From IMG/VR virus record IMGVR_UViG_3300044627_000701, positions 1 through 63,077 of that record: a stretch of DNA of 63,077 nucleotides; one strand, written 5' to 3'. Under the pieces are notes generated by a model that was not told the DNA's origin, did no database searches, and saw only the letters and a list, made by a program, of their open reading frames with translations. The position numbers were made by a program, and so were the translations under genes. This stretch comes from a virus. Lineage: Duplodnaviria; Caudoviricetes. Positions 4,396 through 48,600 of the stretch are shown piece by piece (within the stretch, counting starts at the first letter, position 1; each line of letters starts with the position of its first letter).

Positions 4396-4405
4396 AGGGG
4401 TCTCC

Positions 4406-26118: not shown

Positions 26119-26140
26119 ATGGTAGAAAGGAAATCTTACA

Positions 26141-26602: not shown

Positions 26603-26785
26603 ATGGGTAAAGTCATCAAGCCTGTGAACCTGACGCAACGTGTGTGGGACCGCATGTCAAGGCGCGAGAAGGAGTTCATCGTCGAGCACGAGCGTATGCA
26701 CGAGAAGTTCCGCCAACGTGCGGGCTGCGGGCATATGAGCGCAGAAGAGCTGTTTCAAGCTATTATGGAGCAAACCAATGCCTGA
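26603..26785 (+). CDS. Early hypothetical protein
   Basis: 60 aa; RBS GAAGGGA. Confidence 0.6.
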   Translation: MGKVIKPVNLTQRVWDRMSRREKEFIVEHERMHEKFRQRAGCGHMSAEELFQAIMEQTNA

Positions 26786-26972
26786 GTGCATATCCTGCGG
26801 AGAGACATACTCCGAGCGCCGCGCCCTGCTGGGCTACAACACCTGCCTGTCGTGTGGCGACTTCGCTGCGCGCGCAGTGAAATGGTGCAGCGCACCACTA
26901 AACAAGAGCAACTACGTTGTTATCACCAACAAGGCAGAGCTGACGATGCTCAACCCGAAGAGGACAAGCTGA
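26778..26972 (+). CDS. Small C4 zinc-finger protein (DksA/TraR-like finger)
   Basis: CISCG...ERRALLG...CLSC. Confidence 0.65.
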   Translation: MPECISCGETYSERRALLGYNTCLSCGDFAARAVKWCSAPLNKSNYVVITNKAELTMLNPKRTS

Positions 26973-27441: not shown

Positions 27442-27463
27442 AACACGAAAGAGCAAACACAAC

Positions 27464-28540
27464 ATGACTTCAATCAACTTTGGTTCGCGTGTCTCTCTCA
27501 AGGAGGCAGCGCAGCTGATCGCTGCGGTCGGCACAACAAACAACGTCATGCTGCGTGGCCCCAAGGGCATCGGCAAGTCGAGCATCCTACCCATGATGCG
27601 TGAGTATCTGGGTGACGAATACGAATACGCCTACTTCGACATGACGTCGAAGGCCGAGGGTGACGTGGCTATCCCGTTCCCTGACAAGGAGGCGGGCGTT
27701 ATGCAGTTCTTCACGAACGAGGCGCTCAAGCTGCACACCGGCAAGCCCGTGGTTATCATGTTGGACGAGCTGGCCAAGGCACCGCGCAGTATCCAGAACA
27801 TGGTGCTGCCCATGTTGGAGAACCCAAGGCGCGTTGCAGATAAGCGCCTGCCTGATGGCACTATGGTCATTATCACTAACAACCTATCGGAAGAGGGGCT
27901 GGGCGATACGTTCATGGCGCACACCCTGAACCGCATGACTGTGCTGGAGGTGCGTCAACCTTCTGTCGAGGAGTGGCTGGTGTGGGGTGCTGGCAGCGGC
28001 ATCCATCCTGTTGTGCTGGCGTGGGTGAACCAGACACCCACTGCACTGGCATCGTTCCGCGATGACGACTTCGACGCAAGCAACCCCTACGTCGATAACC
28101 CCAAGCGTGTGCAGGTAGGCCAAGTCGTGACTCCGCGTTCGCTGGAGAAGGCATCGCACATCGTGTGGCAGCGTGAGAAGTTCAGCGAGAACACCCTGCT
28201 GGCTGCGCTTATCGGCACCATCGGTGAGCCTGCGGCGCGGGACATGCAGCACTACATCGCCTTCCAAGACGAGCTGCCTAGCCGTGAGCTTATCCTCAAG
28301 GCACCTGATACCGCACCTATCCCTACGTCCGTAGGTGCAATCATCACCCTGCTCTTCAACCTTGAGCGCGCAGTGGAGGCCGACACCATGTCGGCCATCA
28401 TGAAGTATGTGTCTCGCATGGAGGCCGAGCATCAGGCTGTGTTCTGCACCAGCCTCGCACGTAGCAAGACCAAGCAGACCATCGCCTTCCGCAATGGCGA
28501 CTTCACCAAGTGGGCGGCTGAGAACGCAGATATTTTGTAA
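27464..28540 (+). CDS. MoxR/dynein-like AAA+ ATPase
   Basis: Walker A GPKGIGKS, Walker B IMLDE, LNR and TPRSLE motifs. Confidence 0.85.
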   Translation: MTSINFGSRVSLKEAAQLIAAVGTTNNVMLRGPKGIGKSSILPMMREYLGDEYEYAYFDMTSKAEGDVAIPFPDKEAGVMQFFTNEALKLHTGKPVVIMLDELAKAPRSIQNMVLPMLENPRRVADKRLPDGTMVIITNNLSEEGLGDTFMAHTLNRMTVLEVRQPSVEEWLVWGAGSGIHPVVLAWVNQTPTALASFRDDDFDASNPYVDNPKRVQVGQVVTPRSLEKASHIVWQREKFSENTLLAALIGTIGEPAARDMQHYIAFQDELPSRELILKAPDTAPIPTSVGAIITLLFNLERAVEADTMSAIMKYVSRMEAEHQAVFCTSLARSKTKQTIAFRNGDFTKWAAENADIL

Positions 28541-28593
28541 TCCGTCAAGCCCTAGCGCCGCGCGCTTAGGGATAACACACTAGGAGCAAACCA

Positions 28594-29454
28594 ATGAGCA
28601 TCGCATCATCCTCCATGCTTGTGGAGTTGAACATCAGCGTCTGGACCGGCAACAAGGTGGACAAGACGGTGACCCGACAAGTGACCGACGACAACAGCGC
28701 CACCACGGACGCAGGTCAGTTCCGTAAGAACCTCACGGCAGGCTCGTCTCTCCGCAAGGAGCTGGCCGACTATGCTGCGGCTTGTCGCCTACGACACAAC
28801 CAGTTGACGATGGCATGGTCTGACCGTGGCCCGCGCCTGCTGCCCACCTCCCTGTTCTTCGACTACAAGTCAGAGATGAACGGTCGGCAGACCTACTTCA
28901 CGGACAAGGCCGAGGCGTTCTTTCGTGACTACCCACGCCTGCTGGCCGACGCACCCAAGCATCTGGGTGCGCTGTATAATCCAGAGGACTACCCGTCCGT
29001 CGAGGAAGTGCGTAGCAAGTTCGGCTACCGTCTGGTGTTTACCCCGGTGCCTGAGTCGGGTGACTTTCGCTTAGACCTACCACAGCAGGAGATGGCGGAG
29101 ATGCGTCGCCAATACGATGACGCCTTCGATGTCCGGCTGGCCGAGGCCATGCGTGAGCCATGGGACAGGCTGCACACCACGATCAGTGCGATGACCGACA
29201 AGCTGGTCAAGGTCGAGGCTGCGCCGGATGGGACGGTGACCCGCTGGCACGATACGTTCATCGGCAACGCCGCCGAGCTGTGCAAGATGCTGACCCACTT
29301 GAACCTGACCAAGGACCCCAAGCTGGAGCAGGCGCGGCGCGACCTTGAGAAGGCCATCGCTGGTGTGGACATCGACGATGTGAAGGAAGACGCAGGTGTT
29401 CGCACCGACCTGAAGGACAAGCTGAATACCATGCTCAAGCAATATGAGTGGTGA
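28594..29454 (+). CDS. Helical protein between the AAA and vWA genes (DUF3150-like, from recall)
   Basis: 286 aa; LG.LYN.EDYP motif; gene context. Confidence 0.6.
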   Translation: MSIASSSMLVELNISVWTGNKVDKTVTRQVTDDNSATTDAGQFRKNLTAGSSLRKELADYAAACRLRHNQLTMAWSDRGPRLLPTSLFFDYKSEMNGRQTYFTDKAEAFFRDYPRLLADAPKHLGALYNPEDYPSVEEVRSKFGYRLVFTPVPESGDFRLDLPQQEMAEMRRQYDDAFDVRLAEAMREPWDRLHTTISAMTDKLVKVEAAPDGTVTRWHDTFIGNAAELCKMLTHLNLTKDPKLEQARRDLEKAIAGVDIDDVKEDAGVRTDLKDKLNTMLKQYEW

Positions 29455-29475
29455 TAACAACGTAGGAGCAAGACC

Positions 29476-30705
29476 ATGCAACCAGAACGCAAACTGAAGA
29501 AGGCCAAGATCGACGTGATGCGGTCGCAGCTACCGGGCCTGCGCCTGTGGGCTGGACTCATGTCGGTGGGCAAGACGAGCCTGTGCGACAATACCTCATC
29601 GGCATATACCAATGGGCGCGATGAGGTGTACGGCACTGCCTTCGTCGAGAAGCTGTCCGTAGCGGAGCTGTCCTTCGTGTGTCTGCATGAGGCTGTCCAC
29701 AAGGGGCTTCGGCACCTGACTACATGGCGCAAGCTGTTTGAGGCTGACCCCCAGCTTGCCAACATCGCTTGTGACTACGTGGTTAACCGCATCATCGTGA
29801 AGGCCGACCCCGGCGAGAGCGTGTGCAAGTTCCCGCGCAACCCAGATGGCACCCGCATGGGGCTGTATGACGAGCGGTTCGACGGCATGAGCGCCAAGCA
29901 AATCTTCGACATACTGAAGAAGGAGCAGGAGCAGGAACCCGACGGCCAAGGTGAGGGCAAGCCCGGTGAGCAAGGCGCAGGCCAACCGAGCTTTGACGAG
30001 CATGGCTGGGATGATGCCAAGGAGATGGACAAGGCAGACCGTGACGCGCTGGACAAGGAGATTGACCATGCCCTGCGCCGTGGTGAGGCCGAGGCCAAGC
30101 GGTGTGGCGCTGGCAAGGGTGATATGCCTGCCGAGGTAGGTGAGTTGCTGCGTCCTGCCGTCGACTGGCGCGCTGCATTGCGGGAGTTCTTCAACAGCCA
30201 CTGTGCTGCCAAGGACGAGGCGTCATGGCGCAGGCTCAACCGTCGCTTCGTGGGTATGGATGTGTATCTGCCTTCGATGCACGGCGAGTCGCTTGGCCAT
30301 GCTGTCGTAGGTGCAGACTTGTCCGGCTCGATGTGGTCAGGCGACCCGTCACCCATCAGCCGCATCTTCACCGAGGTGGTTGAGATTGCCAACACTACCA
30401 AGCCCGACAAGCTGGACGTGCTGTATTGGGATACGCAAGTAGCCGGCCACGATAGCTTTACCCAAGGTGACTACGATAGCCTGCTGTCCAAGGTGCGACC
30501 CAAGGGCGGTGGTGGTACGAGCGCCGAGTGCGTCCCCGTCTACATGGCCGAGCATAAGATCAAGCCTGACTGCATCATCATGGTGACGGACGGCCACGTC
30601 TTCGGCGGCTGGGGCAGCAACTACTCCGCCCCTGTGCTGTGGGTAATCATCGACAACCCTACGGTCGAAGCCCCTACGGGCAAGACCTTGCACGTAACCC
30701 TGTGA
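29476..30705 (+). CDS. Metallopeptidase (HExxH) + vWA domain protein (DUF2201-like)
   Basis: AYTNG, HEAVH, NIACDY.VN, MIDAS DLSGS, GGGGT and TDG motifs. Confidence 0.85.
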   Translation: MQPERKLKKAKIDVMRSQLPGLRLWAGLMSVGKTSLCDNTSSAYTNGRDEVYGTAFVEKLSVAELSFVCLHEAVHKGLRHLTTWRKLFEADPQLANIACDYVVNRIIVKADPGESVCKFPRNPDGTRMGLYDERFDGMSAKQIFDILKKEQEQEPDGQGEGKPGEQGAGQPSFDEHGWDDAKEMDKADRDALDKEIDHALRRGEAEAKRCGAGKGDMPAEVGELLRPAVDWRAALREFFNSHCAAKDEASWRRLNRRFVGMDVYLPSMHGESLGHAVVGADLSGSMWSGDPSPISRIFTEVVEIANTTKPDKLDVLYWDTQVAGHDSFTQGDYDSLLSKVRPKGGGGTSAECVPVYMAEHKIKPDCIIMVTDGHVFGGWGSNYSAPVLWVIIDNPTVEAPTGKTLHVTL

Positions 30706-30714
30706 GGAGAGAAC

Positions 30715-30918
30715 ATGACTGACGAACCCAAGGTGTTCACGCTGCTGCGTGAGTACGACGAGAGCAAGTCCAAGCTGCGCGCTCTTGAGGAGGAGCTTAA
30801 CCGAGAGTGCGCGGCCTATGGCCGAGACGTGCTTGGCCTGTGGGGCTTCAGCCCCAGCCACCTGCGCCAGCGCCTGTATGCGCTGGGCCTAACGAAGAAG
30901 GAGCAGACCAATGGGTAA
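30715..30918 (+). CDS. Hypothetical protein
   Basis: 67 aa; RBS GAGGAG. Confidence 0.65.
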   Translation: MTDEPKVFTLLREYDESKSKLRALEEELNRECAAYGRDVLGLWGFSPSHLRQRLYALGLTKKEQTNG

Positions 30919-31105
30919 GAAAGGTTACACCTACTTCAGCACCCTTGATTGGGCGGGGCTGAAGCGCTGGGTGAAGTACGGCACCGACACCGATACCGAC
31001 TGGCGAGACCTCGCTATGGTGCTGGTGGAGCGCGCCGACGAGGAGCGCGAGGACGCTTACGATACTGGACGTGGTGAGGGTTACCACCACTGGGATAGCA
31101 ACTGA
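30911..31105 (+). CDS. Hypothetical protein
   Basis: 64 aa; RBS GAAGGAGCAGAC. Confidence 0.65.
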   Translation: MGKKGYTYFSTLDWAGLKRWVKYGTDTDTDWRDLAMVLVERADEEREDAYDTGRGEGYHHWDSN

Positions 31106-31116
31106 GGAGCAAGCAC

Positions 31117-31968
31117 ATGTTTATCGACGACATCAAGAACGAGTACTTCTACCCGATGGGTGGCACCAGCGTGGTGCTGGAGTTCAACAAAAACTGGGTA
31201 AGCTATGGCAAGGAGGGCACCGCCGTTGTGCATCCTACCATGGCCCGGTTCATCGACGCCCTGCGGGTGAAGCGCCCGACGTGGCGGTTCAAGAGTACCG
31301 AGCGCGTCTACGATAACGAGAGACAAGAGCTGCGTAACTTCGACGTGTATGATGGCGACGAGCAGCTTGGCCGTGTGTGGACCGAGCGCCACTGGCGCAC
31401 GGGTGAGGACCGCTACTGCCTGAACAACCACCGTGTGGAAGCAAGCAGGCAGCGTGGTAGCGGCAGCTTCAGCACCAAGGTGGCCGTTGCCACTAAGAAG
31501 GTACTGGACTCGTTCGGCGTCAAGTCACTCGACGAGCTGGCCGTGGATGCAGCCAAGAAAATCACTGGTGTTCTTAACAATGTGTACAGCAACACTAGCT
31601 TCACATACTCATCCTCCAAGCAGAAGGCGATGAAAGCCCTAGCTACATACATCGAGGACAATTGGGATACACTCAAGTCGTACACCACTGGCTGCGATCA
31701 TATCGACCTGCGAGAACTGCGTGAGCAGCACGAGGCAGTTTCCAAGGCGTATCACTCACTGACGAACGACGGGGCCGCCACCTTGTTCATGCACGGTGAT
31801 CGGATGGTGATGCAACGCCATGACAAACCGTCTAGTGTTGTTACCTTCGATCAGCTGACTGAGAAGCAGCGCGCCAACTTGGGTATGCTGAAGCTCATGG
31901 AAGACAAGGCGTTCGTCGCTGGTGTTGGTATGCGCGTAGATAGCGAGACGTTTTTCTTGCTCGACTAA
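31117..31968 (+). CDS. Hypothetical protein
   Basis: 283 aa; RBS GAGGAGCAAGC. Confidence 0.75.
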   Translation: MFIDDIKNEYFYPMGGTSVVLEFNKNWVSYGKEGTAVVHPTMARFIDALRVKRPTWRFKSTERVYDNERQELRNFDVYDGDEQLGRVWTERHWRTGEDRYCLNNHRVEASRQRGSGSFSTKVAVATKKVLDSFGVKSLDELAVDAAKKITGVLNNVYSNTSFTYSSSKQKAMKALATYIEDNWDTLKSYTTGCDHIDLRELREQHEAVSKAYHSLTNDGAATLFMHGDRMVMQRHDKPSSVVTFDQLTEKQRANLGMLKLMEDKAFVAGVGMRVDSETFFLLD

Positions 31969-31969
31969 C

Positions 31970-31997
31970 TTGACACTGTCTCTGGGTTTGGTATCGT
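31970..31997 (+). promoter_or_regulatory. Sigma70-type promoter
   Basis: TTGACA-16 bp-TATCGT with TG. Confidence 0.55.
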
Positions 31998-32018
31998 CAT
32001 CTCCCCAAGGAGCAAACG

Positions 32019-32312
32019 ATGGCACTTACCCCTGAAGGCAAGGTCAAAGCCAAGGTAGTCAAAATCCTCCGTGAGGAGGGTGTCTATTACTTCTTCCCTG
32101 CTACACACGGATATGGACGGAGCGGTGTTCCCGACATCATCTGCTGCGTAGCGGGGAGGTTTCTGGCTATCGAGTGCAAGGCAGGCACCAACAAGCCGAC
32201 AGCTCTTCAGGTGCATGAGATTGAGCAGATACGTAGCGCAGGCGGCGTAGCCGTAGTCGTGAACGAGGCTAACTGGGACAGCACCCGCGAGATAATCAGG
32301 AGTTTACGATGA
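32019..32312 (+). CDS. VRR-NUC / Holliday-junction resolvase-like nuclease
   Basis: PE, GVPDII, IECK and TALQ motifs. Confidence 0.85.
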   Translation: MALTPEGKVKAKVVKILREEGVYYFFPATHGYGRSGVPDIICCVAGRFLAIECKAGTNKPTALQVHEIEQIRSAGGVAVVVNEANWDSTREIIRSLR

Positions 32313-32434
32313 TAGTAAGGGGCTTGGTTGCGGGTGTCGTGCTGGCTGCGCTGATTATGGCCGGCTGGTTCGTGACGCTGCAAGCCATCGAACGGGAGGT
32401 CGAGAACCGATATGCAACCAGCACGATACCCTAG
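32309..32434 (+). CDS. Small TM protein (41 aa; absent from the ORF track)
   Basis: ATGA overlap; RBS AGGAG; hydrophobic helix. Confidence 0.5.
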   Translation: MIVRGLVAGVVLAALIMAGWFVTLQAIEREVENRYATSTIP

Positions 32435-32687
32435 CGAAAACGAACCCTACTTCTACGTATACTTCACTAAGCAAGAAGGCCGGTGGACCATCGTCGCCGT
32501 GCATCCGGAGGGGGAACAAAGGCCAGCCGTGTACACATCGCGCAGCATAATTGCAGCCGTGGACGAGCTAGGCGCATTTCAGAAGGTGAATACATGGCTA
32601 CAAAAATCAAACGCCGCGCTAGCGGAGCAAGATGTGTCGTTATCCACAACCGTAGGTTCTACTGGCGCTACCCTAACGGGGCAATGA
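32412..32687 (+). CDS. Hypothetical protein
   Basis: 91 aa; GGAGG upstream. Confidence 0.5.
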   Translation: MQPARYPSENEPYFYVYFTKQEGRWTIVAVHPEGEQRPAVYTSRSIIAAVDELGAFQKVNTWLQKSNAALAEQDVSLSTTVGSTGATLTGQ

Positions 32688-32762
32688 GACCAGTGGTGCT
32701 GTCCGAGCGCGCCAAGGCGCACCTGTGGCAGGCCAAAGCAACAGTAGCGAGGGAGCAGGCCG

Positions 32763-32864
32763 ATGCATGACCCGATACTTTTCTGGACGGTGGTCGCACT
32801 TATTGTAGTGCCTAGCTACATACTGATTAAGCGGGCTATCGACCGCGATGGGGATAAGCCATGA
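32763..32864 (+). CDS. Small TM protein (33 aa; absent from the ORF track)
   Basis: MHDPILFWTVVALIVV...; RBS GGGAG; stop overlaps the polymerase ATG. Confidence 0.45.
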   Translation: MHDPILFWTVVALIVVPSYILIKRAIDRDGDKP

Positions 32865-34675
32865 CCATCCTGACCGTAGACTTCGAGACCTACTACAGCC
32901 AGCAGTTCAGCCTGTCGAAGATCACAACGGAGGAGTATGTCCGTGACTCGCGGTTTGAGGCTATCGGCGTATCCGTAAAGGTGGACGACGAGCCGGCGCA
33001 GTGGTTCTCCGGCACTGCCAAGCAGACCAAGGCTTGGCTGGATAGGTTTGACTGGGCCAACAGCATCGCCATCGCGCACAACGCGATGTTCGACATGGCC
33101 ATCATGAACTGGCGGTTCGACATCCGACCCAAGCGCATAGTGGATACCCTGTCCATGCTGCGGGCTATCGACGGACCTGATGCGGGTAACAGCCTAGCCA
33201 AAGCTGCCGAGCGGTACGGGCTGGGCGTCAAGGGCACCGAGGTCGTCAATGCGCTGGGCAAGCGCCGGCTGGACTTCACGCCGGAGGAGTTAGCGGCCTA
33301 CGGGGATTACTGTATCAACGACACCGAGATGACGTACAAGCTGGCGATGAAGTTGCTGGAGGGGTTCCCCAAGGAGGAGCTTCAGCTAATCGACCTGACT
33401 ATGCGCATGTTTACCGAGCCGGTTCTGTATCTCGAAAAGGCCGATTTGGAGTTACACTTATCCGAGGTGAAGGCGCATAAGGAAGCGCTCATGGCCAAGA
33501 TGAACTACGACAAGGCCGAGCTGATGAGTAACCCCAAGCTGGCCGAGCTTCTGGAGTTCCATGGCGTTGTTCCCCCTAGGAAGATCAGCCCGACGACGGG
33601 CAAGGAGACCTTTGCCTTTGCCAAGAACGACGAGGCGTTCAAGGAACTGCTGGAGCATGAGAACGAGCAGGTGCAGGCCATTGTGGCTGCGCGGCTAGGG
33701 GTAAAGTCTACACTGGAGGAGACCCGGACCGAGCGGTTCATCGGTATCTCAGAGCGTGGTCTGCTGCCTGTTCCCCTGCGCTATTACGCAGCCCACACCG
33801 GGCGGTTCGGTGGCGACGATAAGGTCAACCTCCAGAACCTGCCGCGCAAGTCGCCGCTGAAGAAGGCCATCAAGGCACCTCCCGGCTACGTGGTTATCGA
33901 CTGCGACTCCAGCCAGATCGAAGCGCGCACCTTGGCGTGGCTGGCTGGGCAGTGGGACTTGGTTGAGGCGTTCGACAAGGGTGAGGATGTCTACAAGATC
34001 ATGGCGTCATCCATCTACGGTGTGCCTATCGAAGAGGTCACCGACTCGCAGCGGTTTGTGGGTAAGACTACCATCCTAGGTGCAGGCTACGGCATGGGCC
34101 CGGCTAAGTTCCAAGCGCAGTTGAAGACCTTCGGTGTCACCATGGAGCTGGACGAGTGCAAGCGCATCATCGCGGTGTACCGGGAGACTTACCCCTACAT
34201 CCCCAAACTGTGGCGGGACACGGGTGACGCGCTGGAGTCCTTGGTAGTCAATAACCTTACGTCGATTGGTGAGGGCATGAAGCTGGCTGTTGCTGGGGGT
34301 ATCGTACTCCCCAACCTGTTGCGCCTCCGCTACCCCAACCTGCGGCTTATCCTGAACGACAAGGGCAAGCAGGAGATGGTGTACGACACCAAGAAGGGCC
34401 GAGCGGTTATCCCTACGCGGATATACGGCGGCAAGTGCGTCGAGAATATCTGCCAAGCCTTGGCCCGCATCATCATCGCTAACCAGATGCTGATGATCGC
34501 CCGGAGGTACAAGGTAGCCATGACCGTCCACGATAGCGTGGTGGTGGTAGCACCGCAGGAGGAAGCTAACGAGGCGCGTGCGTTCGTTGAGCAGTGTATG
34601 CGTATCCGCCCGAAGTGGGCAGCGGCGTTGCCGTTAAACTGTGAGAGCAAGATGGGAGCAAGCTATGGCGGGTGA
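32861..34675 (+). CDS. DNA polymerase family A with 3'-5' exonuclease
   Basis: ExoI DFET, AHNAMFD, YCIND, HTGR, motif A DSSQIEAR, motif B RFVGKTTILGAGYG and motif C VHDS. Confidence 0.93.
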   Translation: MTILTVDFETYYSQQFSLSKITTEEYVRDSRFEAIGVSVKVDDEPAQWFSGTAKQTKAWLDRFDWANSIAIAHNAMFDMAIMNWRFDIRPKRIVDTLSMLRAIDGPDAGNSLAKAAERYGLGVKGTEVVNALGKRRLDFTPEELAAYGDYCINDTEMTYKLAMKLLEGFPKEELQLIDLTMRMFTEPVLYLEKADLELHLSEVKAHKEALMAKMNYDKAELMSNPKLAELLEFHGVVPPRKISPTTGKETFAFAKNDEAFKELLEHENEQVQAIVAARLGVKSTLEETRTERFIGISERGLLPVPLRYYAAHTGRFGGDDKVNLQNLPRKSPLKKAIKAPPGYVVIDCDSSQIEARTLAWLAGQWDLVEAFDKGEDVYKIMASSIYGVPIEEVTDSQRFVGKTTILGAGYGMGPAKFQAQLKTFGVTMELDECKRIIAVYRETYPYIPKLWRDTGDALESLVVNNLTSIGEGMKLAVAGGIVLPNLLRLRYPNLRLILNDKGKQEMVYDTKKGRAVIPTRIYGGKCVENICQALARIIIANQMLMIARRYKVAMTVHDSVVVVAPQEEANEARAFVEQCMRIRPKWAAALPLNCESKMGASYGG

Positions 34676-35123
34676 GATTGAAGACTTGGAAAACACGCTG
34701 GGGTACGACCCCCTACCTGCGCGGCCCGGACGCCCGAATAAGCGCGGACGCCGGAAGAAGCTTGTGTGTAAGCAAGGCCACCCATTTGTAGAGGGTAACA
34801 TTAGCTATAGGGCGAACGGTACGCGGTTTTGCACGACCTGCCAGAAGGCTTCTAGGCGGGCGTGGCTTCTTAAAAACCCGGACTACAACGCGAAGCACTA
34901 CGCAGCGAAAAACGGGCGCGTTATTAGTGATGAGATTAAACTCAGGTTCCGCTGGGACGGCCAAGATGGGCGAGTCGTAGGTATGGACGTACTCAAGCTG
35001 AAGGAGACAGACTGGGTTATCGCAGCCGACTTCCTGAAAGACGTAATCCGTTTAACCCAGAATTGCTACGATGACGTCCTGAAGGCGAAGCATGTCGACA
35101 AAGGAGCAGATCATGGCGGGTAG
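34665..35123 (+). CDS. Protein with an HNH-associated C-H-C-C zinc finger
   Basis: CKQGHPF..GN......R.CTTC motif; likely ATG at 34665 with RBS GGGAG. Confidence 0.55.
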   Translation: MAGEIEDLENTLGYDPLPARPGRPNKRGRRKKLVCKQGHPFVEGNISYRANGTRFCTTCQKASRRAWLLKNPDYNAKHYAAKNGRVISDEIKLRFRWDGQDGRVVGMDVLKLKETDWVIAADFLKDVIRLTQNCYDDVLKAKHVDKGADHGG

Positions 35124-35535
35124 GCCGAAATACGAAAGCGCGGCTGATCGTGGCAACCAACACTACGTCCTGAGTAAGCTGGGGCGGGCGTTCGGGTTGG
35201 AGGCAGAGGTGCCCACCGAGGAGTATGCGTTCTATGATGGCATGTTCTCGTTTAGTGACCGCAAGTGTGTGGTCGAGGTGAAAACCAGAAAAAACGAGCG
35301 CAGCCGATACCCTACCTACATGCTTAGCAAAAATAAGTACGACGCACTGTGTGACGTAACCAGTCACAGCATGGATGCGCTTCTGGCTGTGCAGTGGACC
35401 GACCAGCTTGGCGTTATTCAACTGCCCACTGAACACACCGTAAGCACAGGTGGGCGCTACGACCGGGGCGACCCGATGGACGTTGAGCAGGTAGTTCTAA
35501 TCCCCACCATTAACTTCAAACGCGTACCAGAATAG
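35113..35535 (+). CDS. PD-(D/E)xK nuclease-fold protein
   Basis: YD...VVEVKTR motif; RBS AAGGAG. Confidence 0.7.
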   Translation: MAGRPKYESAADRGNQHYVLSKLGRAFGLEAEVPTEEYAFYDGMFSFSDRKCVVEVKTRKNERSRYPTYMLSKNKYDALCDVTSHSMDALLAVQWTDQLGVIQLPTEHTVSTGGRYDRGDPMDVEQVVLIPTINFKRVPE

Positions 35536-35545
35536 GAGCAAGCAA

Positions 35546-36151
35546 ATGACCGAATACACATTCACGCAAGACTGGTTCAGCCACAACATCCCTGTGTGGG
35601 AGCAGCTGGTTACGTTGTTACCGGGTACGCCGGGGCAGCGTAACTTCCTTGAAATCGGTTCGTTCGAGGGCCGCAGCGCCGTCTGGATGGCCGAGAACAT
35701 GATGACCGAGGGTGATAACCTTCGTTGTATCGACACATGGGAAGGCAGCGAGGAGCACAGCGCTGAGACCGTGCAGGGTATTGAAGATCGGTTCCGGCAT
35801 AATCTGGTTGTCGCGGCAAAGAAGTTCCCGCGCCGCCGTATCTTCCAGCACAAGTCCGCATCCGTGCAGGAGCTTGCTCACTGGTTGGTGGAAGCTCCCG
35901 AAGACCACCCGACTTTTGACTTCATCTACATCGACGGCAGCCATACTGCCAAGGATGTGCTGACCGACGCTTGCATGGCGTGGCCGCTGCTGAAGCAGGG
36001 TGGCTTGATGGTGTTTGACGACTACCTGTGGGGTGATAGCCGCGACATTCTCCATCGCCCTAAGATGGCTACGGACTTCTTTGTGAACACCTTTGCGGAA
36101 TCACTCGACATCGTTCACATCGGCCACCAGTTTGCGGTGCGTAAGAAGTGA
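35546..36151 (+). CDS. Class I SAM-dependent methyltransferase (Methyltransf_24-like)
   Basis: LEIGSFEGRS, IDTW, FDFIYIDGSH and GG..VFDDY motifs. Confidence 0.85.
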   Translation: MTEYTFTQDWFSHNIPVWEQLVTLLPGTPGQRNFLEIGSFEGRSAVWMAENMMTEGDNLRCIDTWEGSEEHSAETVQGIEDRFRHNLVVAAKKFPRRRIFQHKSASVQELAHWLVEAPEDHPTFDFIYIDGSHTAKDVLTDACMAWPLLKQGGLMVFDDYLWGDSRDILHRPKMATDFFVNTFAESLDIVHIGHQFAVRKK

Positions 36152-36333
36152 CGGGTAACATTGTCAGTCGCCCCCGCAAGCCTGCTGGCTGGTGGACGCC
36201 TGAAAAGCGTCAGGTGGCTTGGGATATGTACGTAGAGGGTAAGCCCTTTGAGGAGATCGCTGAGCACTTTGGCGTGACCCTCGCCGCCGCTGCGCGGCAG
36301 GTGTACCAGCACAAGAAGGAGCAAACGAAGTGA
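36148..36333 (+). CDS. Small helix-turn-helix protein
   Basis: WT.E...FEEIAEHFGVTLAAA motif. Confidence 0.65.
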   Translation: MTGNIVSRPRKPAGWWTPEKRQVAWDMYVEGKPFEEIAEHFGVTLAAAARQVYQHKKEQTK

Positions 36334-37112
36334 GTGACGAATACAAGGTGACGCCGGTCGAGACCAAGCGCCCGAGCCTGATGATCGCTACTCCCATGTA
36401 CGGCGGCATGTGCACGGGTGCGTATGTGCAAGGTCTGCTGTTCACGGTCGCCAAGATGCGTGAGCTGGGGGTGCATGTGGCGTGGTGCCAGATCACCAAC
36501 GAGAGCCTTATCACCCGCGCCCGTAACGAACTGGCGCGTGTCTTCCTTGAGAGCGGCCACGACTACCTGATGTTCATCGACGCTGACATTGGCTTCGACG
36601 CTAACGCTGTGGCTATGCTGCTAGCGGGAGACAGGGACATCGCGTGCGGCATCTACCCCAAGAAGGAAGTGAACTGGGATAGCGTCAAGAAGGCGGCGCG
36701 TGAGGGTAAGAACGACCTGCACGACCACGCTGGTGCGTTCGTCTTCAACATGGTTGGCAGCGGGGATGTCGAGACCGATCCAGAGGGCTTCATCGAGGTC
36801 CGCCATGGCGGTACCGGCTTCATGCTTATCAAGCGCGGTGTGTTTGAACACCTTGCGCCGCATGTACCTACCTATCGGGTGTCGTCGTTCTTTGACCCGG
36901 AGAAGGGGGAGTATGCCAAGCCTTTGACCCATGAATTTTTCGCAACGAGTATCGACGACAGTGGGGCGTTGCTGTCCGAAGATTATCACTTTTGCGAACT
37001 GTGGCGGAAACACGGGGGTAAAATCCATGCCCACCCCTTCATCCGTCTTACCCACACCGGCACGTATACATACGACGGTGACATACTGAAAAGCGGCGGG
37101 AACCTAAAGTAA
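36330..37112 (+). CDS. GT-A fold glycosyltransferase-like protein (replication module)
   Basis: IATPMYGG, ESLITRARN, LMFIDADI, GTGFMLIKR and SEDYHFC motifs. Confidence 0.75.
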   Translation: MSDEYKVTPVETKRPSLMIATPMYGGMCTGAYVQGLLFTVAKMRELGVHVAWCQITNESLITRARNELARVFLESGHDYLMFIDADIGFDANAVAMLLAGDRDIACGIYPKKEVNWDSVKKAAREGKNDLHDHAGAFVFNMVGSGDVETDPEGFIEVRHGGTGFMLIKRGVFEHLAPHVPTYRVSSFFDPEKGEYAKPLTHEFFATSIDDSGALLSEDYHFCELWRKHGGKIHAHPFIRLTHTGTYTYDGDILKSGGNLK

Positions 37113-37122
37113 GGAGCAGACC

Positions 37123-39303: not shown

Positions 39304-39321
39304 CAAGCTAGGAGCAAACTA

Positions 39322-40878: not shown

Positions 40879-40907
40879 AACAACCCCGGCAACCGAAGGA
40901 GCAAACC

Positions 40908-41318
40908 ATGTCGGACTCAGTAAGTATCGAAGAGATGGTGGAGGCGTACCGAAAGGTGCGTGATGCCATCGCCAAGCGTAAAGAAGATTTTGAGTTGAAG
41001 ATGGAGGAGATGGAGAAAAGCCTTGCGGTTATCTCCGCCGCTATCTTGGAGTTCTGTAACGCGCACAATCTGGATAGCGTTAAGACCCCGATGGGGACTG
41101 TGTCGCGTCGCGTTCAGACCCGCTACTGGACCAACGACTGGGAGTCCATGTACAACTTCGTAGTCGAGAATAACGTCCCGTTTATCCTCGAAAAGCGTAT
41201 CCATAACGGGAACATGCAGCAGGTGCTGGACGAGAACCCAGACCTGATGCCGGCGGGCCTTCAGCTCGACCGCAAGTTTGTAATCCAAGTCCGCAAACCC
41301 ACCAAAAAGGGCGAATAA
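40908..41318 (+). CDS. Replication-module protein of unknown function
   Basis: 136 aa; RBS GAAGGAGCAAAC. Confidence 0.75.
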   Translation: MSDSVSIEEMVEAYRKVRDAIAKRKEDFELKMEEMEKSLAVISAAILEFCNAHNLDSVKTPMGTVSRRVQTRYWTNDWESMYNFVVENNVPFILEKRIHNGNMQQVLDENPDLMPAGLQLDRKFVIQVRKPTKKGE

Positions 41319-42552: not shown

Positions 42553-45351
42553 ATGGACTTCGACCTTCTACAGCACGTCCAGCCCGCGTCTGGCCATATC
42601 GCCATTGTCGGTATCAAGGACGGGTATGTACGGCAGACGCTCGTACCGACCCGAGAAGAGGCGGACGCAGCAATCGAGACTTATTTACGGGGAGGTAGGG
42701 ATGTATATTTCGGTGTAGCAAAGTACGTAGAGCCAACCAGCAGGACTCAGGAAAACGTACAGGCTCTCAAGGCTTTCTGGCTGGACATCGACTGCGGTCC
42801 GAACAAGGACTACGACGACCAAGGGCAGGGGCTTCAAGCGTTACGGGACTTCTGCACGACCGTAGGTCTGCCCCGTCCTACCTTGGTGGACTCCGGTCAT
42901 GGCTGGCACGTCTACTGGGCGCTGAACCAAGAAGTTAGCCGTGCACAGTGGGAGCCAGTGGCTTCACGGCTGCGCGAGGTCTGCCGCACCCAAGGGTTGC
43001 GCGTGGATGAGAAGGTCTTTGAGGCGGCGCGCATCCTGCGCATACCGGGCACGTTCAACTTGAAGCGCGGCGGGCAGGCTCCTGTCACCGTGGCGCATGT
43101 CGGGGACCTTATCGACTTCGACGACTTTTGTGGGTTGCTTGGTGTAGCACCACCGGCAGCGCCCAAGTCTATCTTCGACCCGAACTTCAAGGCCCCGCCC
43201 CAGCAGCAGGCTATGCTGGACGGGGTAGGCTACAGCTTCAAGCGTATCATGAAGCGGACCGCCAGCGGTGATGGCTGCGCCCAGCTGGCTCACGCCTACA
43301 CCAATAGGGAGACGGTGGACTATAACGAGTGGTTCTACGCCCTGTCAGTGGCGGCGTTGTGCGAGGATGCCTCCACGGCGGTTCACCTGATGTCGGACGG
43401 TCACCCCGGCTACGACCCGGAAGAGGTGGACAGGAAGGTAGCCACCATCCGGAAGGCGACTAGCTGCACCCGGTACAAGGCCACAAGCCCGGACCGCTGC
43501 GAAGGGTGCAAGCACTTCGGCAAAATCTTCGGTCCGCGCGACCTAGGTAAAATCCCCAAAGTGGCCGCCAACAATATCAAGGTGGAGGAGATACTAGGGG
43601 AGGTCCGGACGTTCGAGATACCTGAGTACCCCACACCCTATTACCGGGGCGAAGGCGGCGGTGTCTGGGTACTGCCGCAAAAGAACGAAGCCGGAGAGCA
43701 ACCGGACCCAGTCTGTATCTACCCCTTTGACCTGTATGTGGTGAAGCGCATCACGGACCGCGTCGACGGGGGATACAAAGACCACGTGCTTATTCGCCTG
43801 CACCTACCCAACGACGGGATACGGGAGTTCACGCTCCCCATGATGAAGGTCTCGGTCTTTGATGAGTTCCGCAAGATAATGGCGGACGGGGGTGCTTACC
43901 TGCGGGGGAAGAAAGCCAACATACTACACGACTACATCATGTCATCGGCGGATATGCGCCTAAAGAAGGATAAGGCAGAAATCATGAGACAGCAATTTGG
44001 ATGGGTAGAGAACAACAGCCGGTTCGTCATTGGCGACCAAGAGATTACCGCGACGGGGCACGTCTACTCGCCGCCGTCAAAGGTCACGCAGAAGCTGGCC
44101 AAGTTCATTGGTCCGGTGGGTACGCTGGATAAGTGGAAAGAAGCAGCGGCGATGTTTAACGTGCCGGGTATGGAGCCTCATGCGTTCGCAGCGCTGAGTG
44201 CCTTCGGCGCTCCGCTTCTGAAGTTCCTTAACCAGACTGGTGCGGTCATCAACTTGTACAACCCACGCTCTGGTACGGGTAAGTCGACCGTGCTTAACTT
44301 GGTCAACAGCGTCTATGGGCACCCTAAGAACCTGCGGCTGGCGCAGAAGGACACGCTTAACGGGCGACTGCTCTGGGTGGGTATCCTTAACAACCTGCCT
44401 GCGACCATGGACGAGCTGACCAACATGTCGCCGGAGGAATACTCCGAGCTGCTCTACGGCCTGTCTAACGGTAAGGGCAAAGAGCGCATGGTGTCGGGCA
44501 CCAACGAGCTGCGCGAGAACAACACCACATGGCAGACCATCACCGTGTCCACGGCCAACGCATCGTTTGCGGAAAAGCTGTCCGTGTTGAAGCGCGCTCC
44601 AGAAGGTGAGTTGATGCGCCTCATCGAGTACCCCATCGGCCTCGTCGAGTCTGTCGGCACCGAGTACGGCAAGCAGATGTTCGACATGGTGTTGATGGAG
44701 AACTACGGCCACGCTGGTCCTATCTTCCTACGGCACATCATCTCCAAGCTGCCAGAGGTACTGGCGAAACTGGAGAGCACACAGGCCAAGATCGACCGGG
44801 AACTGAAGCTGCTCCCCCGTGAGCGCTTCTGGTCTGCCACCATCGCTGCCAACCTTGTCGGGGCTATCTACGCCAAAGAGTGTGGTCTGATTACGTGGGA
44901 CCTGAAACGCATCTATCTGTGGGTCTGCCAGCGGCTTGAGATTATGCGTGGAGAGACCGAAGCCCCACTGGATGACGTCGAGCAGGTTCTGGGCGACTAC
45001 TTGTATCGCAGCATACAGAACATCTTGGTCATCGACGACGGCGATGCGCGCAGCAAGGCCAAGCCGCTGCCGAAGCGCGAACCCAAGGGTGAGCTGCTGG
45101 TGCGTATCGAGCCAAACACCAAGATGATGTACGTCTCGGTCAAGCAGTTTAAGGAATATTGTGTGCGGTTCCAGATCAGCTACGCGGAGACGACGCGCAA
45201 GCTGAAGGAGAAGGGCCGCCTCCTGAAGAGCGACACCTACCGTCTGACCAAGGGCACCAATGTTACGGTGGACCCCGTTCACTGCCTGTACCTGAAGGTG
45301 GATGAGGATATGCTCGACTTGGAGGTATACACCAAGACCGATGAAGATTGA
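42553..45351 (+). CDS. Primase-helicase (RepB-like primase + DUF927-type helicase)
   Basis: WLDID, DSGHGWHVYW, RILRIPGTFN, Cys cluster, Walker A SGTGKST and MDE motifs. Confidence 0.85.
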   Translation: MDFDLLQHVQPASGHIAIVGIKDGYVRQTLVPTREEADAAIETYLRGGRDVYFGVAKYVEPTSRTQENVQALKAFWLDIDCGPNKDYDDQGQGLQALRDFCTTVGLPRPTLVDSGHGWHVYWALNQEVSRAQWEPVASRLREVCRTQGLRVDEKVFEAARILRIPGTFNLKRGGQAPVTVAHVGDLIDFDDFCGLLGVAPPAAPKSIFDPNFKAPPQQQAMLDGVGYSFKRIMKRTASGDGCAQLAHAYTNRETVDYNEWFYALSVAALCEDASTAVHLMSDGHPGYDPEEVDRKVATIRKATSCTRYKATSPDRCEGCKHFGKIFGPRDLGKIPKVAANNIKVEEILGEVRTFEIPEYPTPYYRGEGGGVWVLPQKNEAGEQPDPVCIYPFDLYVVKRITDRVDGGYKDHVLIRLHLPNDGIREFTLPMMKVSVFDEFRKIMADGGAYLRGKKANILHDYIMSSADMRLKKDKAEIMRQQFGWVENNSRFVIGDQEITATGHVYSPPSKVTQKLAKFIGPVGTLDKWKEAAAMFNVPGMEPHAFAALSAFGAPLLKFLNQTGAVINLYNPRSGTGKSTVLNLVNSVYGHPKNLRLAQKDTLNGRLLWVGILNNLPATMDELTNMSPEEYSELLYGLSNGKGKERMVSGTNELRENNTTWQTITVSTANASFAEKLSVLKRAPEGELMRLIEYPIGLVESVGTEYGKQMFDMVLMENYGHAGPIFLRHIISKLPEVLAKLESTQAKIDRELKLLPRERFWSATIAANLVGAIYAKECGLITWDLKRIYLWVCQRLEIMRGETEAPLDDVEQVLGDYLYRSIQNILVIDDGDARSKAKPLPKREPKGELLVRIEPNTKMMYVSVKQFKEYCVRFQISYAETTRKLKEKGRLLKSDTYRLTKGTNVTVDPVHCLYLKVDEDMLDLEVYTKTDED

Positions 45352-45535
45352 GGGTGTCTTCTACGACATAGACTGGGTGACCTTCCCGAAGGGGCACTCA
45401 GTCTTCATTCCCTGCTTGGATACCCAAGCCGGTAAGGAGGACGTCTACCAAGAGGCCCAACGTCTGGAGGTGGCCGTATTCGTTCGAGGAGAGACGCATA
45501 ACAGCATAAAGGGGTTGCGTCTCTGGAGGCTCTAA
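45341..45535 (+). CDS. Small hypothetical protein (64 aa), last gene of the early arm
   Basis: ATG at 45341 with RBS GGAGG; W..F.KG.SVFIPC...GLRLWR. Confidence 0.7.
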   Translation: MKIEGVFYDIDWVTFPKGHSVFIPCLDTQAGKEDVYQEAQRLEVAVFVRGETHNSIKGLRLWRL

Positions 45536-45548
45536 GATAATAGTGGAG

Positions 45549-45629
45549 CTGGAAGTTTGCTCCTTCCGTGTTGCACCCCCTCCCGCCGGCTGTAGGTCTC
45601 CCCCATGACCTCGCCGGCGGGATTTTTTT
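45549..45629 (+). ncRNA. Predicted anti-Shine-Dalgarno small RNA
   Basis: Hairpin GGAAG-TTTGCTC-CTTCC complementary to early-gene RBSs, followed by a terminator hairpin; candidate promoter TTGCGT(45515)-17-TAATAG(45538). Confidence 0.6.
45581..45629 (+). terminator. Rho-independent terminator ending the early arm
   Basis: TCCCGCCGGC...GCCGGCGGGA followed by T7; internal stem AGGTC/GACCT. Confidence 0.85.
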
Positions 45630-48600
45630 ATTGGTCCTTCAGCATCTCGTTGGCGCGCTGTTCCGCCAACGGCTGGCGCACGGGAATTTTCGGGTTGAAG
45701 CCCAGCCCGTAAGCGCGCTCCCCGGCTACCTTGCTCTTGCTCTGGAACGACTTGTCCTTGTCTTCCTCGGTGATAGTGTTCGAGGGGAAGTTCATGTTGT
45801 AGATGGTGATGTCCCGCTCGACGCGCTTCCAGTTTTTCAGGTTCTCGTCCGTGGGCTTCTTGTTGAACTCCAGCACCGCACGATACCGCTGGTCAAGCAG
45901 CTCAGTCGCCTGCTTGCCTACCTCTTCTTCGATTTCTCCAGCCTTGATGTCGAGCTGCATAGCCCGCGATGTGCCGGCCTCGGTGAAGCCCGCCGACTGT
46001 AAAGCCAACGTGTAAACGTCGTAGAAGCTAGGGTCCTTAAGGACGACGTCGCGGTTCTTACCTACGACCAGACCTTCTTCCTCCAGACGCGCGGCCTTGA
46101 ATATATTCTTCAGGGCGGCGGGCATTACCGCTTCAACGGCCTTATCAAGGTTACCCGCGTTGGCTTCTTTCCAAAACCGGAAAAAGGCAGCGGGGACCGC
46201 CGCCGAAGGGCCAAGTACCGTGCGGCCCAAGGTCTCAAGGAACATAACTTCCGGGTCATCAGACTTAGACGGCGTGGAGTGCCACAAGTCGTTCAACGAC
46301 ACCGAACTGGAGATATCCACCCCACCAAGGGCGGGCAGACCCATGTCAGCCATAGCCGCCAGCTTCGCTGCGGCTTCGGGGCTAAGGCCAAGTGCGTTTG
46401 CAAGCGTACCGCCCGGACCAAACGTCTCCGGAATCCACACCGACCGGATGAAGTAATCCATGTCCTTCTTGGACAGCTCTCGGCCCTTCTCGTCCGCAAA
46501 TTTCAGCATCTCCCGCTGGATGGTTTTCTCGGAGACGTAGCCGCCTTCGATCTCCTTCTCTTCTTCATCGTCATCGTCGCCAAAGGTTTCCTTGACGAAC
46601 TCGTAGATGCCGTATGCGCCCAAGGCCAGCATGTAGAACTGAGAAGCGCGCAGGCCGCCGAGGAGCGTTGTCATCGCGGCAACACCAAAGAACATCCGCG
46701 CAGCCGCCAGCTTGCCTCCCTTGTTCCTCTGGAGCGGTATCATACCCACAAAGCTACGGAGCAGTAGCGACGTCATCGACTGGCTATACGAGCGCATCTG
46801 GAGCGGCAGACGGCCCGCGCGCGACTTTGCGTAACGTGACTTGTTCCAGTTCGAGAAGTCAAACATGGCCTTGCTGGTCAGCTTCTCGGCCAGCTCACGT
46901 GCTTCCTTACCGGCATCCTTGGGTGTCTTGCCCTGCTTGATGGCGCGCTCGTAGGCCATGTCGAACGCCGACATAACCATGATTTCGCGTCCAATACGCT
47001 CAAAGGTATGGAAAGACGCGCCAAGGAGTTGGCCGGTGTTAGCCACGGCAAGCTGCGCTGCACTGGCGGTGTCGCCACGGCGCAGAGACTGCATGAAGCT
47101 GAACTTATCCGAAGGCTTATTACTACGCTCGTATATGTTCGCGCTTGCCGTAAAGGTGCTCTGTGTAACGTCGCGCTCTTCAAAGAAGCGCCACGCCTTC
47201 ATCAGTTCGCCGTACCGAGTAGGGTCGGTCTTACGTAGCTCTCGGATGTACGGGCTGTTCTCCAGTGTGAACTTCGGTGTCTGGAGTTTGAGGTTGCCGT
47301 CCTTATCCTTGAACGGGTTACCCATACGACTCCCGGTGAGGAAGGTACCCATGTAACGCGCCATCGTAGCCGTAGTGGCAGCCTCACCAAACTCAGCAGA
47401 AAGCGTAGGCAAACCAACGATGGGTAGCTGGAGCAAGTTTACCACCGCAGACTTCGGCGCAGAGAGCAGCAGGTAGAAGGTCGCCTTGGAGCCCAAGCTC
47501 AACCACCAGTCGATGGTTTTTTGTGGGTCCGGAGACAGAATCCCTTTCACGCGCAGCGCCATTTCCCGCGTGATGGTGTCCAACTTGGCCTTGCTTGGAC
47601 GCCCTTCGGTCTCCTTGAGCCCGGCTGTGATAAGGTTGTCGAACTTGTAGTTAAACGCCAGCCGCCCCAGCTGGTTAGCCGAAGCGATGGAGGTCGACGC
47701 ATAGGTGCGCAGCAGGTCGGTGCTGAAGCCGGTCTTGAAGCTACGGTGGATAAACCGCCGCCGCATGTCGGACTCCGGAAGAGCAGTCAGGTACAGCTGA
47801 AGGACACTCTCCTCCAGTACGTCCACGTCTGCCGCCTTACCGTCAGCGATAAGGTCCAAAATATTTTTCAGCGCCGCACTGGCGTCGTTCTTGGTGAGCT
47901 CCTTGCGCAAGGTGTCACGGCCAAAACCGGAGCTGACGTCACGGGTATCTTTGTCTTCGCGCAGCTGCGCCATGAAGGCTTCTTGGGCGGTGAGCGACTC
48001 GAACATATGGAACTCGCCGGTCTTACCCTTACCGACCGTTACCCAGTACTCCCCGAAGCGTTTCAGGGGGAAGTAGATGGTACGCTTCTTGGCTTCAGCG
48101 AACATCTTCTCCACCGCGCTCTTAAGCTTGATCCGATCCTCAGACTTGAGATCGGCGGCGTTAATACGCGCCATAAGCAGCCGGTAGTGCTCGTCGAAAG
48201 TTTTGCGGTACTCATCGCGCAGCATACGGAACATCTGCTTACCTGCGCCGCCGCCAAACTCGGGGCGCGACAGATCGTTCCAGCCGTAGACGGTTTCTTC
48301 GGTCTGCTCGTCAACACCGCCCGTGTACGCACGGCGGATTTCCCCCTGACGGGTGCTGATGTTGTTTTGTATCGCAGTCCGTTTCTTAGGGTCCGTTTCG
48401 CTGGCAAGTTCCGCTTTGAGTTCCGCCAGCTTGTTGTCGAGCTTGAAGTACTCGGTGGCGTTGGGTGCCAGCGACGGGTCTACATCGACCATGTTTGCGT
48501 AGATAACGACATCAGTCAGCGCCTTCCCGCCCAGCTCCGTACGGGACAGGAAGTCCGCCAGTTTCTCAGACGTTTGACTGGCGTTCAAGACCATACGGTT

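Follow-up and report, generated by a model that had tools for sequence, protein, structure and literature searches.

The two gene arms of a complete caudoviral genome, the IMG/VR record IMGVR_UViG_3300044627_000701 (63,077 bp with direct terminal repeats; this whole stretch is referred to below as the window), converge on a gap of 92 bp at 45536-45627. On balance, we believe that this gap houses a gene for a small RNA of ~78 nt that acts in trans by base pairing and that a large family of uncultured phages has conserved. Its predicted seed is complementary to an extended ribosome-binding site (RBS) signature found just before the starts of about a dozen genes of the same genome. These genes belong to the plus-strand arm (~26.0 to 45.5 kb), which contains replication and nucleotide metabolism genes, coding for an ATPase, HNH-like and other nucleases, a DNA polymerase, an exonuclease, a helicase, and a DUF927 primase-helicase. 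The minus-strand arms code for the terminase, the portal, virion proteins, and a giant protein of 2,751 aa. The gap itself lies between the stop of the last plus-strand open reading frame (ORF) at 45535 and the end of the ORF for the giant protein at 45628.

The convergent gap and its predicted RNA

When the plus strand of the gap is folded as RNA, it forms a 5' hairpin and a GC-rich stem, followed by a run of seven T's (minimum free energy, -44.5 kcal/mol; z = -6.6; 0 of 200 shuffled sequences as good). The 5' hairpin, GGAAG-UUUGCUC-CUUCC (45551..45567, plus strand), contributes only -3.7 kcal/mol when folded alone, and its loop is unpaired with a probability of 0.98 to 1.00, a combination of weak stem and exposed loop that would suit a seed that opens upon pairing. 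The candidate seed, GUUUGCUCCUUC (45555..45566, plus strand), consists of the loop and the first bases of the 3' arm and is complementary to GAAGGAGCAAAC. Downstream, we identified an intrinsic terminator (45581..45629, plus strand), with a GC-rich stem-loop at 45581-45621 and the T-run at 45623-45629, the latter overlapping the stop codon of the convergent giant gene. A consensus scan overlooks this terminator because its loop exceeds the limit of the tool. On the minus strand, there is no T-run 3' of the stem, and the terminator works on the plus strand only. The predicted small RNA would thus span 45550..45629 on the plus strand (~78 to 80 nt), with its 5' end placed by promoter geometry and its 3' end by the terminator. 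A preliminary reading of this genome, hereinafter the original prediction, had proposed a gap of ~90 bp between the arms, this hairpin with a seed pairing to its single-stranded loop, and a terminator giving an ~80-nt RNA; the measured gap, the position and fold of the hairpin, the unpaired loop, and the stem with its T-run all bear this out, with the extent of the transcript remaining a predicted one. Searches against Rfam 15 gave no match, to the C4 family or any other, for the entire window at gathering scores or for 45450-45700 at E values of ≤10.

The predicted transcription and 5' end of the RNA rest on a pair of promoter-like elements. A -35-like hexamer, TTGCGT (45515..45520, plus strand), is formed by the Leu-Arg codons of the GLR motif at the end of a conserved 64-aa ORF (45341..45535, plus strand; MKIEGVFYDIDW...KGLRLWRL), and a -10-like hexamer, TAATAG (45538..45543, plus strand), lies just 3' of the stop codon of that ORF, with a spacer of 17 nt between the two. 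Comparison of 103 distinct modules from related phages showed that the -35-like hexamer occupies one fixed position in 88 of them, formed by the Gly-Leu-Arg codons of a C-terminal GLRxW motif; it reads TTTACG, the family consensus, in 80 modules and is mostly of the TTGCG type in the others. In a logo anchored on these codons (101 of the 103 modules), the Leu codon is TTA or TTG in all 101 and never CTN, the Arg codon is CGN in all 101, and the wobble base of the preceding Gly codon is T in 84. The frozen state of these synonymous sites points to a nucleotide-level constraint beyond that imposed by the protein. The spacer in the family is 16 to 18 nt and is followed, right after the ORF stop codon, by a TATnnn -10 element (TATAnn or TATGAn), which ends 14 to 15 nt 5' of the GCTCCT core of the hairpin in 69 of 99 core-bearing modules. 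This is 6 to 7 nt before the hairpin, so that the transcription start would fall on, or immediately beside, the first G of the hairpin.

An exact scan of IMG/VR with the 17-nt hairpin sequence recovered at least 118 stretches, and the 17-mer occurs at 126 places among the 132 loci examined. At least 97 of these loci (78 distinct contexts) share a single layout, namely, the small ORF, the -35 and -10 elements, the hairpin, a variable linker, a GC-rich stem, and a T-run; the other 29 places are unrelated coding contexts. To sample the element independently of the RNA, we searched with the 64-aa ORF and took the best 80 of its 382 relatives, which gave 76 loci with at least 100 nt of downstream sequence. 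In these, the GCTCCT core is present in the hairpin in 73, the exact 17-mer in 32, and the T-run, which accompanies the GC-rich stem in the window, in 74. The loop is conserved in relatives that keep the AGGAGCAAAC RBS, and none of the refuting conditions named in the original prediction that are open to computation applied. Among eight close relatives, with primases 85 to 98% identical to that of the window, the 17 nt are unchanged, and the wobble sites of the preceding codons, the spacer, and the downstream gene differ; the hairpin is invariant in nine of nine close relatives while its flanks vary. The terminator stem of these phages is replaced by other self-complementary sequences in which both arms are changed.

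Across a broader alignment of 52 distinct sequences (A3), GCUCCU is unchanged in every one, and the five pairs of the hairpin stem are 94.6% paired, with three of the five changing on both sides. The resulting compensatory stems, e.g., GCAAG/CUUGC, GACAG/CUGUC, and GAGAG/CUCUC in place of GGAAG/CUUCC, give a stem covariation that none of 500 shuffles reaches, and controls in which the alignment was slid score far lower. The variable stem positions are those that are not used by the targets, and the bases 5' of AAGGAG in the targets likewise vary. Given that the protein encoded next to it is only 34 to 47% identical to that of the window across most of the sample obtained with the 64-aa ORF, the invariance of the RNA core reflects selection.

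We also considered and rejected a few other interpretations of the gap and the hairpin. A small peptide is excluded by a 5-nt insertion in two relatives (L003 and L004), which breaks the TTG-started 12-codon frame over the hairpin. A minus-strand gene behind the RBS-like sequence is excluded because there is no start codon at RBS distance, the opposite strand of the gap having no gene start. A U-turn (YUNR) loop motif fits the canonical loop alone and not its variants and was not used.

The RBS signature and its co-variation with the RNA

In the window, exact contiguous complements to the 17-mer are found on the plus strand at the RBSs of a series of plus-arm genes. The longest, of 12 nt, precede gene 40908-41318 (match at 40895..40906) and gene 36330-37112 (36315..36326), which belongs to PHROG 1574 of unknown function. 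Matches of 11 nt precede the helicase gene 39322-40863 (39310..39320) and an endonuclease-like gene, 32019-32312 (32007..32017); one of 10 nt precedes gene 28594-29454 (28582..28591); and one of 9 nt (26767..26775) precedes a 64-aa Cys4 zinc-ribbon-like ORF, with 2 nt between the match and the ATG at 26778. These six had been listed in the original prediction, and all of them proved to be exact. Beyond that list, we found a further 9-nt match (30897..30905) before gene 30911-31105 and five 8-nt matches at 27451, 29464, 31105, 35534, and 37111 (spanning 27451..37118), before genes 27464, 29476, 31117, 35546, and 37123, respectively, each just 5' of a plus-arm start codon. At the 40895 site, an additional upstream GCAAC can pair with GUUGC in the linker of the RNA, and the duplex with the first 32 nt of the RNA reaches -27.7 kcal/mol. 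More generally, the linker sequence GUGUUGC can form a second short helix with GCAAC or AACAC 5' of several signatures in the window; these sequences correspond in part to the upstream stop codon plus CA, the gene junctions being stereotyped. As a separate observation, the zinc-ribbon-like ORF (26778-26972, plus strand) overlaps, in another frame, the start of a 184-aa ORF in the gene list.

The signature discriminates between the gene classes, which agrees with the contrast of early and late genes drawn in the original prediction, examined here as the plus arm versus the minus arms. For this purpose, we used the longest nonoverlapping ORFs on the coding strand of each arm, which are crude gene calls. 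A complement of at least 9 nt is present at 7 of 29 plus-arm starts versus 0 of 50 minus-arm starts (Fisher P = 5e-4), and GGAGCA is present at 11 of 29 versus 1 of 50 (P = 3.5e-5); when only the starts bearing GGAG are considered, the counts are 11 of 14 versus 1 of 19. The duplex energy with the 17-mer averages -12.5 kcal/mol at plus-arm starts and -9.0 kcal/mol at minus-arm starts (P = 0.0017), and none of 300 shuffled 17-mers pairs as well with the plus-arm starts. A generic probe for the tail of the 16S ribosomal RNA (rRNA) shows no difference between the arms (P = 0.71), indicating that the difference does not stem from overall Shine-Dalgarno (SD) strength. What distinguishes the classes is the base after GGAG, which is C in the plus arm, whereas late genes mostly have G or A there. 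A C at this position departs from the usual complement of the 16S tail and fits the G of GCUCC in the RNA. A start-agnostic census of GGAG plus ATG in early versus late genes, which counts many false starts, was not significant (P = 0.18 and 0.06).

The same asymmetry is seen across the family. In 449 kb of sequence upstream of the element, the 9-mer GGAGCAAAC occurs 58 times on the strand of the RNA versus once on the other strand, against a chance expectation of ~1.7, and all 58 same-strand sites lie 1 to 3 nt before an ATG or GTG. In 358 kb downstream, where the late genes are on the other strand, the counts are 3 and 2. These strand and arm counts indicate that the signature is a family-wide property of the replication arm and not of the late genes. 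Of 56 distinct phages, most retain the signature at the ortholog of gene 40908.

Where the RNA departs from its canonical form, the RBSs frequently depart with it. Phages with a UUGCUC loop, which is one U shorter, have GGAGCAAC(U) RBSs at four of nine sites versus 9 of 174 in the canonical class; such sites number four in G005 (10 to 12 nt) and make up three of three in G007 and G008, and the UUGCUC loop with GGAGCAACU constitutes a natural variant pair. In phages with UUAGCUC, the RBSs are of the form GGAGCTAA, with GGAGCUAA sites of 10 and 12 nt in G001 and G002, and phages with UUUUGCUC have a GGAGCAAAA site at the ortholog of gene 40908. G001 additionally has extra CUCUCC tracts in its RNA, and most of its RBSs are GGAGAG. 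In a similar manner, UUCUCCU is paired with AGGAGAA RBSs in G018, and CUCCUUGUUG is paired with CAACAAGGAG RBSs in G019. A 60-kb relative that lacks GCUCCU has CCCUUGGUUGG in its RNA, and six of its starts carry AACCAAGGA(G); a pattern search found AAGGAGCA once in this contig. To compare RNAs and RBSs across 13 RNA classes, we used the mean longest exact complement on whole RNA bodies, double-centered, in place of the mean duplex energy of 23-nt probes, a noisy measure as the probes differ in stickiness. Cognate combinations gave positive diagonal residuals in 12 of the 13 classes, and 0 of 100,000 permutations, which take no account of phylogeny, reached the observed sum. At the ortholog of gene 40908, cognate pairs average -26.5 kcal/mol versus -24.5 kcal/mol for noncognate pairs (P ~ 5e-5; n = 56).

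Proposed mechanism and competing explanations

On the basis of these observations, we propose that host RNA polymerase would start at a promoter whose -35 element lies in the last codons of the 64-aa ORF and whose -10 element lies past its stop codon, producing a transcript that runs from the hairpin, or from immediately beside it, to the intrinsic terminator. The loop of 7 nt together with the first bases of the 3' arm (GUUUGCUCCUU) would act as an exposed seed, with pairing initiated in the loop. This seed could pair with the (G)AAGGAGCAAAC signature 1 to 3 nt before the starts of about a dozen replication and nucleotide metabolism genes, leaving out the structural and late genes, in which the signature is absent. 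Pairing would cover the SD sequence along with the bases between it and the start codon, thereby blocking 30S binding and lowering the translation of this gene set together. The repressive direction and the timing that we propose follow the general action of small RNAs that cover RBSs. Given the location of the RNA gene on the phage genome itself, the dose of the RNA should rise with replication, resulting in a negative feedback by which the replication module might be damped or shut off; a dosage feedback of this kind, like that of plasmid copy control RNAs, is speculation on our part. As no integrase or repressor was found among the proteins of the plus arm, a switch or damper in the lytic cycle appears to be favored, and a repressor for a dormant or carrier state, which the original prediction had also entertained, appears less likely.

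Several observations weigh against this proposal. The two promoter hexamers of the window each match the sigma-70 consensus at three of six positions; a consensus scan of the gap reports no promoter; and the last position of the -10 element is not a conserved T in the family. The candidate promoter of the original prediction is confirmed in its positions (TTGCGT at 45515 and TAATAG at 45538), which have a family-conserved spacing, and is weak in the window itself. Co-variation of loop and RBS signature is seen in most classes but not in two, those with AUGCUC and CUGCUC loops. These keep GGAGCAAG, with the predicted base at 0 of 14 and 1 of 8 sites, respectively; accordingly, their first loop base does not co-vary with the RBS in the Watson-Crick sense, and their pairing ends at (G)AAGGAGCA, with 8 to 10 bp. 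Moreover, relatives inherit both the RNA and the RBSs, which inflates the figure from the permutations, and independent changes in RNA and RBS number perhaps five to eight. Within the class with the invariant 17-mer, co-variation between the linker and the target flanks is weak (P = 0.016 to 0.02, and 0.088 once redundancy is removed). One relative, an IMG/VR fragment of 5,068 bp (L173), lacks the anti-RBS hairpin while keeping the ORF, the GGUUGGUGUUGG linker, and the terminator. Finally, the starts of the DNA polymerase and the primase are without the signature, implying that not the whole arm is targeted.

The promoter-related points also bear on an alternative that we regard as unlikely, in which the same anti-RBS element has no promoter of its own and is the 3' untranslated region (UTR) of the replication operon, acting in the long messenger RNA or as a processed, 3'-UTR-derived small RNA. 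The element directly follows the last plus-strand ORF with no terminator in between, as would be the case for a 3'-UTR-derived RNA that shares the terminator of its coding gene, and this alternative would readily accommodate the weak hexamers of the window and the promoter-free scan. The overlap of the -35 element with conserved codons also means that its conservation is partly due to protein coding. Such an origin does not, however, account for the frozen synonymous sites of the -35 codons, with TTR as the only type of Leu codon and a T at the Gly wobble position in 84 of 101 modules, or for the noncoding TATnnn element, which holds a fixed distance to the hairpin amid varying surroundings. 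A 3'-UTR origin would leave the proposed pairing function unchanged.

We give a similarly low rating to the idea that the RNA is real but has another main job, with the matches to phage RBSs being secondary. In one form of this idea, the anti-SD core would direct it to host messages or to the translation apparatus, resulting in host shutoff; in another, it would be the partner or sponge of a protein such as the product of the 64-aa ORF. The invariant GCUCCU does include the universal anti-SD sequence CUCC, many linkers in the family hold a second pyrimidine-rich CUCC or CCUC tract, and the 64-aa ORF invariably lies beside the RNA. Yet the bases flanking the SD complement fit the class signature of the phage's own genes and change with it between phages, and the seed of the RNA separates the gene classes, which the generic 16S-tail probe does not. 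With respect to a protein partner, comparison of the 64-aa ORF with RNA-binding folds shows no significant similarity.

The location right after the DUF927 primase-helicase gene and the small ORF could instead suggest a DNA-level element, such as a replication origin, a hairpin for single-strand initiation, or a site bound by a protein, with an incidental likeness to RBSs; an invariant short inverted repeat would be in keeping with this, and the compensatory stem changes also fit a DNA hairpin. We consider this very improbable because it leaves unexplained the complementarity of the loop and 3' arm to a signature found on one strand, 1 to 3 nt before starts (58 sites versus 1), the matching variants of RNA and RBS, and the T-run terminator on the same strand. 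Least credible of all is an ordinary terminator-region hairpin with a chance complementarity between purine-rich SD sequences and a pyrimidine-rich stem: any CUCC stem complements any SD sequence, and a 13-mer search with up to three mismatches gave 29 matches where 15.3 are expected, but 17 nt are invariant beside a protein that has diverged to 34 to 47% identity, no shuffled seed among 300 pairs as well, and the 9-mer strand counts and the Fisher tests agree.

Relationship to known systems and neighboring features

The small RNA favored here can be compared with several characterized regulators. The c4 RNA, to which the CI RNA of phage P4 is related, acts on two sites of a single operon (icd-ant), maintains the immunity of temperate phages, and is processed from a longer transcript. 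Published work on c4 describes loop-presented complementary bases that bind around the RBS and block translation (PMC12197685). Our candidate is like the c4 RNA of phages P1 and P7 (~77 nt and phage encoded) in that loop-presented complementary bases would block RBSs, with a phage-specific specificity set by sequence. It is unlike c4 in that about a dozen separate genes, 4.6 to 19 kb away, share the target signature, no lysogeny genes were seen on the plus arm, and Rfam has no match to it.

A likeness of another kind is to RegB and RegA of phage T4. One account describes RegB sites as GGAG with conserved 3' bases, most middle and all late messages being resistant, and describes RegA as occluding the initiation sites of ~30 messages (PMC3014915). 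As in these systems, a phage factor would read an extended, class-specific initiation signature and inactivate a temporal class; unlike RegB and RegA, which are proteins that act on early messages, the recognizer here would be an RNA that reads by base pairing. Among the window proteins scanned, which are a subset of the ORFs, there was no labeled match to RegA or RegB.

DicF and other multitarget, RBS-occluding small RNAs of prophages and bacteria are short, end in an intrinsic terminator, and pair through a conserved single-stranded seed with the initiation regions of several messages. Unlike these RNAs, whose targets are mostly host genes with unrelated RBS contexts, the RNA proposed here would act on genes of the phage itself, all marked by a common "barcode" that has apparently coevolved with the seed. 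The OOP RNA of lambda and the sar RNA of P22 are small pairing phage RNAs transcribed opposite a single target; our candidate differs in that the predicted RNA is on the strand of its targets, which are situated 4.6 to 19 kb upstream, and this shared strand and distance indicate that it is not a cis antisense RNA. CopA of plasmid R1 and RNA I of ColE1 are constitutive stem-loop RNAs with loop-initiated pairing and a dosage-linked negative feedback on replication, and they are cis antisense RNAs with a single target. For the present RNA, many targets in trans are proposed, and the dosage feedback that it may share with these plasmid systems is only inferred. The small RNAs of phage PAK_P3 also differ, being described as having a tRNA-loop-like 11-mer and single phage targets rather than targeting multiple RBSs (PMC4933390).

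In a literature search, we found no phage RNA that acts on numerous RBSs of the genome encoding it, in agreement with the view of the original prediction that none has been described, which is not proof of absence; a search for RNA motif surveys of viral metagenomes returned no papers. Base-pairing small RNAs themselves are known, and what is new is probably the combination, as judged from sequence, of such an RNA with a regulon set by a coevolving RBS barcode in virulent-type phages. We tentatively extend this to the broader, possible scenario in which a widely distributed, uncultured, and apparently virulent phage lineage has given its replication genes an RBS barcode specific to that lineage, which is read by one dedicated small RNA that controls the class at translation initiation, with the RNA and the barcode evolving together. 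Virulent phages are known to time their gene expression mainly by means of transcription factors, RNA polymerases of their own, and a small number of RNA-binding proteins. If the present proposal is correct, one small RNA reading a shared RBS signature on about a dozen genes would amount to a compact, programmable off-switch for a gene class and an RNA counterpart of T4 RegA and RegB. The RNA-barcode pair could further determine specificity where related phages compete, in the way that c4 does in the case of P1 and P7. The natural variants of seed and signature in the family permit direct reporter tests, and the consensus can be used to look for RNA regulators in viral metagenomes, which have hardly any annotated noncoding RNAs. 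The stereotyped junction, consisting of a stop codon, a short spacer, AGGAGCAAAC, and the start codon, could also serve as an orthogonal part for translation control.

The 64-aa ORF that always adjoins the RNA gene, 5' of the hairpin, has 382 relatives in IMG/VR, and an alignment of 36 sequences (A2) spans 34 to 83% identity to the window copy. Its AF2 model is a small α/β structure of high confidence (pLDDT, 93.2). Despite this confident model, a comparison with PDB folds gave no significant match (best E = 0.46), and by this measure it shows no significant similarity to known RNA-binding proteins. Searches of Pfam and PHROG assigned it to no family, those of cultured phages gave no credible match, and those of a protein atlas returned viral hypothetical clusters only. 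In one relative (L246), the ORF is longer by 13 codons and crosses the promoter region. More generally, a blastn search of 44800-46400 against GenBank phages returned nothing, and the primase-helicase has only matches of 26 to 27% identity in cultured phages. The sole match on a genome contig is L246 (G021:C10; 60,068 bp; 51% G+C), which is binned in a metagenome-assembled genome labeled Candidatus Nanopelagicales; this may be a hint of the host or a misbinning, as the binning of phage contigs is unreliable for host assignment.

No transfer RNA or transfer-messenger RNA gene was found. On the plus strand of the window at 1626-5169, the motif AGCAAACTT(C) is repeated about every 141 nt, where it is antisense to repeat-containing late genes (minus-strand genes 1428-2570, 3287-4360, and 4406-5722); it shares 8 to 10 nt with the complement of the RNA, and we rejected it as a target, as it lies on the noncoding strand. 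The divergent control region between the arms (25450-26140) is dense in GTAAGA(AA)/TTCTTAC motifs in both orientations and also contains three direct repeats of ~45 nt (ATGATAGTGGGCTGAGCGGTAGGACT...). A sigma-70 scan of this region found no promoter, and the region looks like an operator or promoter array. Right 3' of the terminator, from 45630 onward, there is a mosaic breakpoint, beyond which the convergent minus-strand gene differs among phages with primases that are 85 to 98% identical. In the window, this gene is the giant 2,751-aa ORF (45628-53883, minus strand), which contains a HATPase_c domain and a DarB-like antirestriction stretch. Its N terminus is similar to that of N4-type virion RNA polymerases, and it also has weak metallopeptidase-like matches; its product may be an injected multidomain protein.

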